Source: a virus
Lineage: Duplodnaviria; Heunggongvirae; Uroviricota; Caudoviricetes
Strand: one strand, 5' to 3'
Length of the DNA stretch: 40,512 bases
IMG/VR virus record: IMGVR_UViG_2917875804_000001
In this document: positions 31,473 to 32,383 of the stretch, in pieces
Position numbering within the stretch: position 1 is the first letter of the stretch
How the letters are laid out: every line of letters starts with the position of its first letter
The notes under the pieces: model-generated
What the model saw: only the letters and a program-made list of their open reading frames with translations
What the model was told of the DNA's origin: nothing
Database searches by the model: none
Program-made: the position numbers and the translations under genes

Positions 31473-32009
31473 TCATATCGCCCCCAGCATGGTGGTGACC
31501 ATCGCCATCAATGGACCAGCCAGATCCGGGTCCACACGAAACATCGACACAATGCCTTCACTCATCTCCTTCAGTTTCTGGTGGCGTGGCGCGTTGAGAA
31601 TGACAGCCTGTTTTGCTTCACTGAGTTCCTTTTCCATTTCAGCCAGCCGAGCCATGAAGCTATCCTGCTCAACCAGGTAACCGCGATATTCCAGCGGTAG
31701 TACCGCCAGAATTGCCGGGGTCAGTTCACGCACGTTATTTCGGTATTTTTCAGAATCGAATTTGTTATCGAGGAAGCGGAACAGCTTCTGGCGTGCACGG
31801 CTGACATCATCAGGGAAATCGATGGTGCCGCCGCCCTGCTCCCGATACTCATTCACAATGAGTGCGGCAACAACATCCTGATTATCTGCAGCCGACCAGG
31901 CGCGAACGGCATCACGGATTTTTTTCGTGGCCTGGCACCTGTTTTGTTTGAGAACGATTTATCACCGCAGTCGGGCTAAATCCGCTAGTCTGTTGGTATG
32001 TAAGTGGTT
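31473..32009 (-). CDS. YdaT-like protein at the cII position; possibly split by a frame change at an A7 run (forward T-run about 31919-31925)
   Basis: Track ORF 31473..31856 starts at GTG. An ATG at 32009 opens a 38-codon frame that stops inside the A-run; one base fewer gives a continuous ORF of about 178 aa. The N-terminal extension is uncertain. Confidence 0.45.
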
Positions 32010-32042
32010 GCATAGTCATTGCCTTATCAGTTAACGCCGCAG

Positions 32043-32272
32043 TTTAGGCGGCAGAATTACTCGCGTTAAACAATGGTGCGAGGTCGGGACGAATATCTGC
32101 TGGTTTAATCTTTCCACCAGTGGCTGAGACAATTTTCATTACATAGCGGGCATCAATTCCGCCACCGTGTAGCCAACGCCAAACAGTGGGTTGGGCTACA
32201 CCGCATAGATCTGCCAGTCGTTTTTTGACTACCTGTAATACTGATTGCGAGTTGAATGGTTTGATTTGTCAT
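32043..32272 (-). CDS. Cro/YdaS-like HTH regulator, split by a frame change at an A6 run (forward T-run 32221-32226)
   Basis: ATG at 32272 gives MTNQTIQLAISITGSQK then shifts; the adjacent frame reads ...RLADLCGVAQPTVWRWLHGGGIDARYVMKIVSATGGKIKPADIRPDL, a typical Cro-like helix-turn-helix. Neither piece reaches 60 aa, so it is absent from the ORF track. Confidence 0.55.
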
Positions 32273-32383
32273 TATCAATTCCTATTGGTATTGCAATGAA
32301 TGGATAATAGCAATACGTATTAATCCAAGCAATAGCAAAACGTGTTTTGACCATCAATACGCAAGCGTATAAATTAAAAACTT
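32273..32383. promoter_or_regulatory. Divergent promoter/operator region between the cro-like and cI-like genes (OR analogue) with AATAGCAATA-type repeats
   Basis: AT-rich 110-bp intergenic region with repeated AATAGCAATA/TATTGCAAT motifs and an AATACGTATT palindrome. Confidence 0.5.

Follow-up and report, generated by a model that had tools for sequence, protein, structure and literature searches.

Immunity regions in which a YdaS-type Cro and a YdaT-type CII accompany a cI-type repressor have already been published, and this switch architecture is not new. In prophage CP-933P of Escherichia coli O157:H7, experiments showed that the YdaS helix-turn-helix (HTH) protein and YdaT are counterparts of Cro and CII rather than a toxin-antitoxin pair (PMC8630535; PMC9986795). 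Operator binding and repression of the maintenance promoter, the function of a Cro protein, have been demonstrated only for the CP-933P homologue (PMC8630535), and CP-933P YdaT, a tetramer with a POU domain, recognises an inverted repeat and switches on a PRE-like promoter (PMC9986795).

We analysed a window of 40,512 nucleotides, the whole of the IMG/VR virus record IMGVR_UViG_2917875804_000001. The prophage was inserted at a tRNA-Thr gene (39069-39144) adjoining proA, with the integrase at the prophage end. Region 31473-33076 is the immunity switch of this lambdoid prophage, with a YdaS-type Cro and a YdaT-type CII. The switch and the replication genes that follow it comprise these features:

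32384-33076, plus strand: cI-type repressor of 230 aa, intact (open reading frame; Pfam HTH_3 and Peptidase_S24)
32273-32383, no strand assigned: divergent promoter/operator region separating the repressor from the Cro-like gene (repeats, promoter scan, run length)
32044-32272, minus strand: YdaS-family Cro-like HTH gene (frame analysis, Pfam, phage annotation)
32221-32226, minus strand: A6 run (T6 on the plus strand) that shifts the frame of the HTH gene (A5 in the comparators)
31473-32013, minus strand: YdaT-family CII-like regulator gene (frame analysis, Pfam, PDB alignment, phage annotation)
31919-31925, minus strand: A7 run (T7 on the plus strand) that shifts the YdaT-like frame, codons 30-32 (A6 in the comparators)
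30457-31476, minus strand: replication initiator O of 339 aa, intact (PF04492)
29759-30460, after O: P of 233 aa (PF06992)
29463-29762, after P: ren-like gene

Isolated phages 4A7 (NC_049946.1, Bievrevirus bv4A7), Lambda_4C10, D2, 1W, 3W, Perceval, PhiR68_2 and others were about 97% identical to the window in nucleotide sequence from the repressor to the start of O. They shared its gene order and gene sizes, with cI of 693 nt (annotated as 639 nt in PhiR68_2) followed by genes of 228 nt and 540 nt, and these were labelled cI, Cro (transcriptional repressor) and cII. Compared with the phages, whose genes were intact, the window had one extra A in each of the two leftward genes and an intergenic A run that was one base longer.

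The CP-933P region (PaaR2/YdaS/YdaT) resembled the window in having the YdaS HTH gene and ydaT between the repressor and O, divergent from the repressor. The sequence similarity to it was distant (PDB 8bt1, E = 3.7e-4, residues 28-106), the YdaT of the window had about 22 more N-terminal residues than that of CP-933P, and the paaA2-parE2 toxin-antitoxin module of CP-933P was absent from the window. The window repressor carried an S24 autopeptidase domain, whereas PaaR2 has none (PMC8630535). With lambda, the window shared the logic and the order of cI, divergent promoters, cro, cII, O, P and ren. It differed from lambda in a Cro analogue of the YdaS family, with a weak, sub-threshold match to P22_Cro, and in a CII analogue of the unrelated YdaT/POU fold, the CP-933P version of which binds an inverted repeat, whereas lambda CII binds a direct repeat (PMC9986795). 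RacR/YdaS/YdaT of the Rac prophage of E. coli K-12 showed family-level homology: its proteins belong to these two Pfam families and its genes are placed likewise. RacR, the Rac repressor, is essential, and the prophage is a cryptic remnant. The YdaS and YdaT of Rac have historically been debated as toxins (PMC5700377; PMC5700373).

The repressor of the window had an N-terminal HTH domain (HTH_3, 28.3 bits, residues 13-63) and a C-terminal S24 autopeptidase domain (Peptidase_S24, 67.2 bits, residues 96-219), as found in lambda-type cI of the LexA/S24 superfamily. Its translation contained a GDSM serine motif and, downstream, the lysine of HVKRL; E. coli homologues bore the label 'XRE family transcriptional regulator', and the phage 4A7 homologue was labelled 'CI-like repressor'. 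The 111-bp intergenic region between the repressor and the Cro-like gene held inverted repeats made of TATTGC / GCAATA, and a PRM-like TTGACC-17-TAAATT was located on the plus strand at 32347-32375 by consensus match only. Scanned for promoters and terminators, the switch region yielded one consensus match, which was no more than shuffled sequences gave. The -10 hexamer TAAATT, which ended at 32375, lay 8 nt ahead of the ATG of the repressor gene (7 nt after correction of the adjacent A run); this spacing suggests a repressor mRNA that may be leaderless, as for lambda cI.

The HTH gene, on the minus strand, ran from an ATG at 32272 to a stop codon at 32044-32046 and was the first gene of the operon divergent from the repressor. 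Translation from the ATG gave MTNQTIQLAISITGSQK and then left the frame at the A6 run (32221-32226), and the remaining 58 residues (RLADLCGVAQPTVWRW...NSAA) were in a different frame. The gene opposite the cI-type repressor is thus split between two frames at A6 in the window, just as the original prediction had described it. Its length was 229 nt in the window and 228 nt (75 aa) in all comparators. When one A was removed from the A6 run, the gene encoded a 75-aa protein that was identical to that of the sister contig described below and near-identical to WP_000184665.1 of E. coli S51 and SE11. The repaired protein matched PF15943 YdaS_toxin over residues 6-64 (54.6 bits, cut-off 30), which assigns it to the YdaS family; its match to P22_Cro reached 17.3 bits (cut-off 30.2). 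In isolated phages the gene was annotated as 'Cro' or 'transcriptional repressor'.

The YdaT-like gene, also on the minus strand, started with an ATG at 32013, with a further in-frame ATG at 32019, and stopped at 31473-31475, where its stop codon overlapped the start of O (ATGA, 31473-31476). It was positioned between the Cro-like gene and O. From the ATG it read MQPLTYQQ...VPGHEK until the A7 run (31919-31925) took it out of frame; what followed, IRDAVRAW...MLGAI, formed the 3' part of an open reading frame at 31473-31856. The out-of-frame N-terminus at A7 was therefore present as had been noted earlier, and the earlier observation on both genes was right in all its coordinates. The gene measured 541 nt in the window and 540 nt (179 aa) in the comparators, and removal of one A from the A7 run gave a 179-aa protein, identical to that of the sister contig and near-identical to WP_001182873.1 (E. 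coli S51 and SE11). Isolated-phage annotations called it 'cII' or 'CII-like transcriptional activator'.

The repaired YdaT-like protein matched PF06254 YdaT_toxin over residues 67-154 (102.7 bits, cut-off 21), which assigns it to the YdaT family. Two PDB entries, 8bt1 (E = 3.7e-4) and 3c4r (E = 7.2e-4), aligned with it from query residue 28-29, which points to homology with the POU/HTH domain of the solved YdaT structures. Residues 1 to about 27 were mostly an extension absent from the solved YdaT proteins, and the A run at codons 30-32 fell inside the first segment conserved with those structures, in the DNA-binding domain. The profile alignment that had been proposed as a check thus matched both PF15943 and PF06254, and the N-terminal segments of both genes aligned with homologues. 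The assignment of a Cro/YdaS-like HTH gene and a YdaT-like gene to the cro/cII position was borne out by these Pfam hits and by the location upstream of O and P. Neither the 39-aa frameshifted N-terminal fragment of the HTH gene nor the 35-aa frameshifted N-terminal fragment of the YdaT-like gene was on record in the exact-protein index, an absence that carries no information, since PGAP assigns pseudogenes no product and gene callers may skip short open reading frames.

[quoted passage not shown] By our own estimate, about 0.002 perfect matches would be expected by chance per window. With up to three mismatches allowed, 23 matches were found against 23.3 expected, which is chance level. The perfect and one-mismatch sites are noteworthy as candidate operators only, the YdaT of the window being a distant homologue of that of CP-933P. 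Further downstream, the interior of the O gene (about 30925-31040) contained four to five iteron-like repeats (TTACCTGATTCGGGTAA and variants), which would be the expected lambda-type replication origin.

The source of the DNA was identified through exact-protein matches. Window positions 7048-40512 were 100.000% identical to contig PDIC01000013.1 of assembly GCA_004745305.1. The project PDIC00000000 is Escherichia cryptic clade II strain E4208, sequenced to 45x with single-end Ion Torrent reads of 35-400 nt and assembled with MIRA and SPAdes, the reads being listed under SRX3260359 (PMC6639607). No substitutions relative to window positions 7050-40512 were seen in a sister assembly (contig VATR01000022.1 of GCA_005781195.1) or in the assembly made from the SRR8835205 raw reads. 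The sole differences between the window and the sister were 13 single-base indels over about 33 kb. Eleven of these were +1 in the window and lay within runs of five or more bases (positions 24444, 27935, 29085, 31925, 32226, 32380, 33438, 33950, 34184, 36852 and 37092); the other two were undercalls in short G/C runs, one at 9452 (GGG to GG) and one at 16061 (CC to C).

Runs of five or more bases hold 2.4% of all bases, so that 11 of 11 insertions falling into them by chance has a probability of about 2e-18. The overcall rate increased with run length: none of the 1,523 runs of 3-4 bases of any kind carried an overcall, compared with 1 of 81 A/T runs of 5, 4 of 31 A/T runs of 6 and 5 of 14 A/T runs of 7. 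Homopolymer length miscalls are a known weakness of Ion Torrent sequencing. The intergenic run at 32376-32380, which was A5 in the window and A4 in all comparators, was the third overcall of the switch region. Against E. coli S51, a 1-kb segment showed 13 substitutions and three single-base insertions, all three of the latter in homopolymers; the same picture held over the whole window, with one base gained in A/T runs and single bases lost at G/C sites. The absence of substitutions together with 13 indels of the homopolymer kind is a technical and not an evolutionary signature.

Read-level evidence was obtained by proxy from Logan contigs, which are assembled directly from SRA runs. Contig SRR6148339_521 was 100% identical to window positions 9099-22121, including both private undercalls, and since these are shared, SRR6148339 comes from the same strain or read set as the window. 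This run is very probably the E4208 read set, judging from sequence identity and same-period accession numbers and not from metadata. A second contig of the run, SRR6148339_379, covered window positions 27989-32340 with no substitutions; its HTH gene had A5 and its YdaT-like gene A6. Both genes were called intact in it, at 75 aa and 179 aa, and their translations equalled the repaired ones exactly. The contig also had an undercall of its own (CC to C at 29397) that was absent from the deposited and sister assemblies; the reads are therefore noisy, neither assembly is authoritative alone, and a k-mer majority path is not proof. The in-frame A5/A6 version agreed with the sister strain, E. coli S51, SE11 and phage 4A7. 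A genuine pseudogene would have its frameshift reproduced in independent data from the same strain; here SRR6148339_379 was intact, as was the sister strain. The original prediction that both genes are inactivated is contradicted by these in-frame runs (A5 and A6 in the SRR6148339 assembly), the very result that it had named as evidence against itself, here obtained by proxy.

Of 5,426 complete E. coli genomes, 717 (about 13%) carried at least 80% of the 1-kb switch segment, at 95-99% identity. In E. coli, PGAP labelled the intact 228-nt gene "helix-turn-helix domain-containing protein" and the intact 540-nt gene "toxin YdaT domain-containing protein". E. coli S51, SE11 and phage 4A7 had A5 and A6 at the two runs, and PhiR68_2 had A5 and an intact 540-nt cII. 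In other, independent public assemblies (L006, L008 and L010-L014), the ydaT run was A5 in six and A7 in one, each with the same 127-aa truncated call. Several of these A5/A7 assemblies carried other homopolymer errors or split genes, and L011 had none over 3.4 kb. A 127-aa C-terminal YdaT reading frame on about 25 contigs was considered as a widely circulating truncation and rejected as evidence for the allele of the window, as the contigs had mixed run lengths (A5, A6 and A7) and several came from visibly error-prone assemblies with split icd, exo and O.

The data make it highly probable that both frameshifts are +1 Ion Torrent homopolymer overcalls retained in the deposited consensus, that the real genes are intact and that the switch is an ordinary, phage-like one. 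What is directly established is where the DNA came from, how it was sequenced, what pattern its errors follow and that independent assemblies show both runs in frame. Flow-space sequencing would have read A5 as A6 in the HTH gene and A6 as A7 in the YdaT-like gene. In the intact arrangement, an SOS-cleavable cI-type repressor would be transcribed rightwards, and the leftward operon would encode the 75-aa Cro analogue, the 179-aa CII analogue, O, P and Ren. By analogy with CP-933P and lambda, the S24-domain repressor would keep the leftward promoter off until its cleavage after SOS induction, the YdaS-type protein would then repress the maintenance promoter of the repressor, and the YdaT-type protein would boost repressor synthesis during establishment. 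We infer that the switch is functional in E4208. Homopolymer runs are also natural hot spots for slippage mutation, and real run-length variants of ydaT may exist elsewhere.

If the frameshifts were real, the prophage would be a decaying one in which slippage killed the Cro and CII analogues, the repressor would keep immunity and the lytic switch could not be completed. The frameshifts do stand in the deposited sequence, homopolymer runs are slippage-prone by nature, other assemblies have A5 or A7 at the ydaT run, and the loss of one base each from the capsid and tape-measure genes, reproduced in an independent read assembly, would fit a defective prophage. However, we know of no mutational process that yields 13 indels and no substitutions, the proportion seen over 33 kb relative to the sister strain; in mismatch-repair mutators, transitions accumulate at least as fast as indels. 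The dependence of the overcall rate on run length, the Ion Torrent chemistry and the in-frame runs in the read-level assembly SRR6148339 also argue against decay, which we regard as very improbable. The proposal of a cro-defective prophage locked in lysogeny falls because the frameshifts were not shown to be biological, and it was dropped in favour of sequencing errors in an Ion Torrent draft, given the in-frame independent assembly.

The A runs might instead be functional slippery sites, at which phase variation or transcriptional or translational slippage toggles or partly restores expression and run lengths are mixed in the culture. Such sites would account for the different run lengths in two assemblies of apparently the same read set and for the occurrence of A5, A6 or A7 at the ydaT run among public assemblies, several of which, however, carry other homopolymer errors or split genes when the run is A5 or A7. 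Efficient slippage is associated with runs of about nine or more bases, and runs of 5-7 A are short for it, when transcriptional, and for phase variation. The same disagreement was found at nine other runs, both intergenic and in unrelated genes, and is thus not specific to the switch. Among complete E. coli genomes, 718 matched the HTH segment over its full length and 1,781 held the ydaT segment; the exact +1 sequence of the window at the respective run was absent from all of them. On this evidence, slippery sites are exceedingly improbable as the explanation. A toxin-antitoxin-like YdaS/YdaT module, the inactivation of which relieves toxicity, would suit the Pfam names YdaS_toxin and YdaT_toxin and the toxicity of ectopically expressed Rac ydaS/ydaT (PMC5700377; PMC5700373). 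Against it, YdaT is a DNA-binding POU-domain tetramer (PMC9986795), the pair is located exactly between the cI-type repressor and O/P, isolated phages hold it intact, and the inactivation is itself an artefact, so that this explanation is hardly credible. The toxin/antitoxin framing of the pair has been superseded now that YdaS and YdaT have been shown, in CP-933P, to work like Cro and CII (PMC8630535; PMC9986795).

With the frameshifts in the window read as overcalls, a separate question is the variation at the ydaT run in resident prophages in general. We consider it improbable that the A6 tract at codons 30-32 is a natural slippage hot spot that recurrently knocks out, and possibly restores, this regulator of lysogeny establishment. 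If it were, part of the run-length variation, conceivably that of this strain too, would be biological and not technical. Were the frameshifts in the window real, a prophage that retains immunity and has lost its Cro and CII analogues would be a modest case of prophage domestication. As it stands, the case is a cautionary one: of the 7-base A/T runs in this Ion Torrent draft, about one third were one base too long. Apparent homopolymer pseudogenes in GCA_004745305.1 should be distrusted, and so, probably, should those in the 15 companion Ion Torrent genomes of BioProject PRJNA412557, which are likely to share the artefact.

Other genes of the prophage were touched by single-base differences. 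Of the further +1 overcalls, that at 24444 hit a DUF3800 gene, that at 27935 an invasin-D4-like moron, that at 29085 a Bro-N gene, that at 33438 a gene of 170 aa beside the repressor and that at 36852 an early gene of 93 aa; the remaining ones (32380, 33950, 34184 and 37092) appeared to be intergenic. The loss at 9452 split the tape-measure gene into 439 aa and 130 aa (610 aa in relatives), and that at 16061 split the major capsid gene into 130 aa and 283 aa (401 aa in relatives). Both losses were reproduced in the SRR6148339 Logan assembly and absent from the sister strain, which has no substitutions, and could be explained by systematic Ion Torrent undercalling or by genuine private mutation. 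As proof of a defective prophage they were rejected: they are undercalls in short G/C runs, the sister is intact, and the Logan assembly has a private undercall of its own. The annotation of GCA_004745305.1 listed no product for the YdaS-like, YdaT-like, capsid, tape-measure, Bro-N and DUF3800 genes, which were presumably flagged as frameshifted pseudogenes.

At the left end, window positions 1-2983, past the tail-fibre genes, were unmatched in the closest E. coli prophages used here; matches to strain T2 began at 2983 and other hits at about 2015. At position 5976, beside a G5 run, the window had one C fewer than E. coli strain T2. This difference, which may be a sequencing error or a real one, lay close to the 3' terminus of a gene for baseplate assembly (open reading frame 5917-7008), with a length of 363 aa versus 359 aa.
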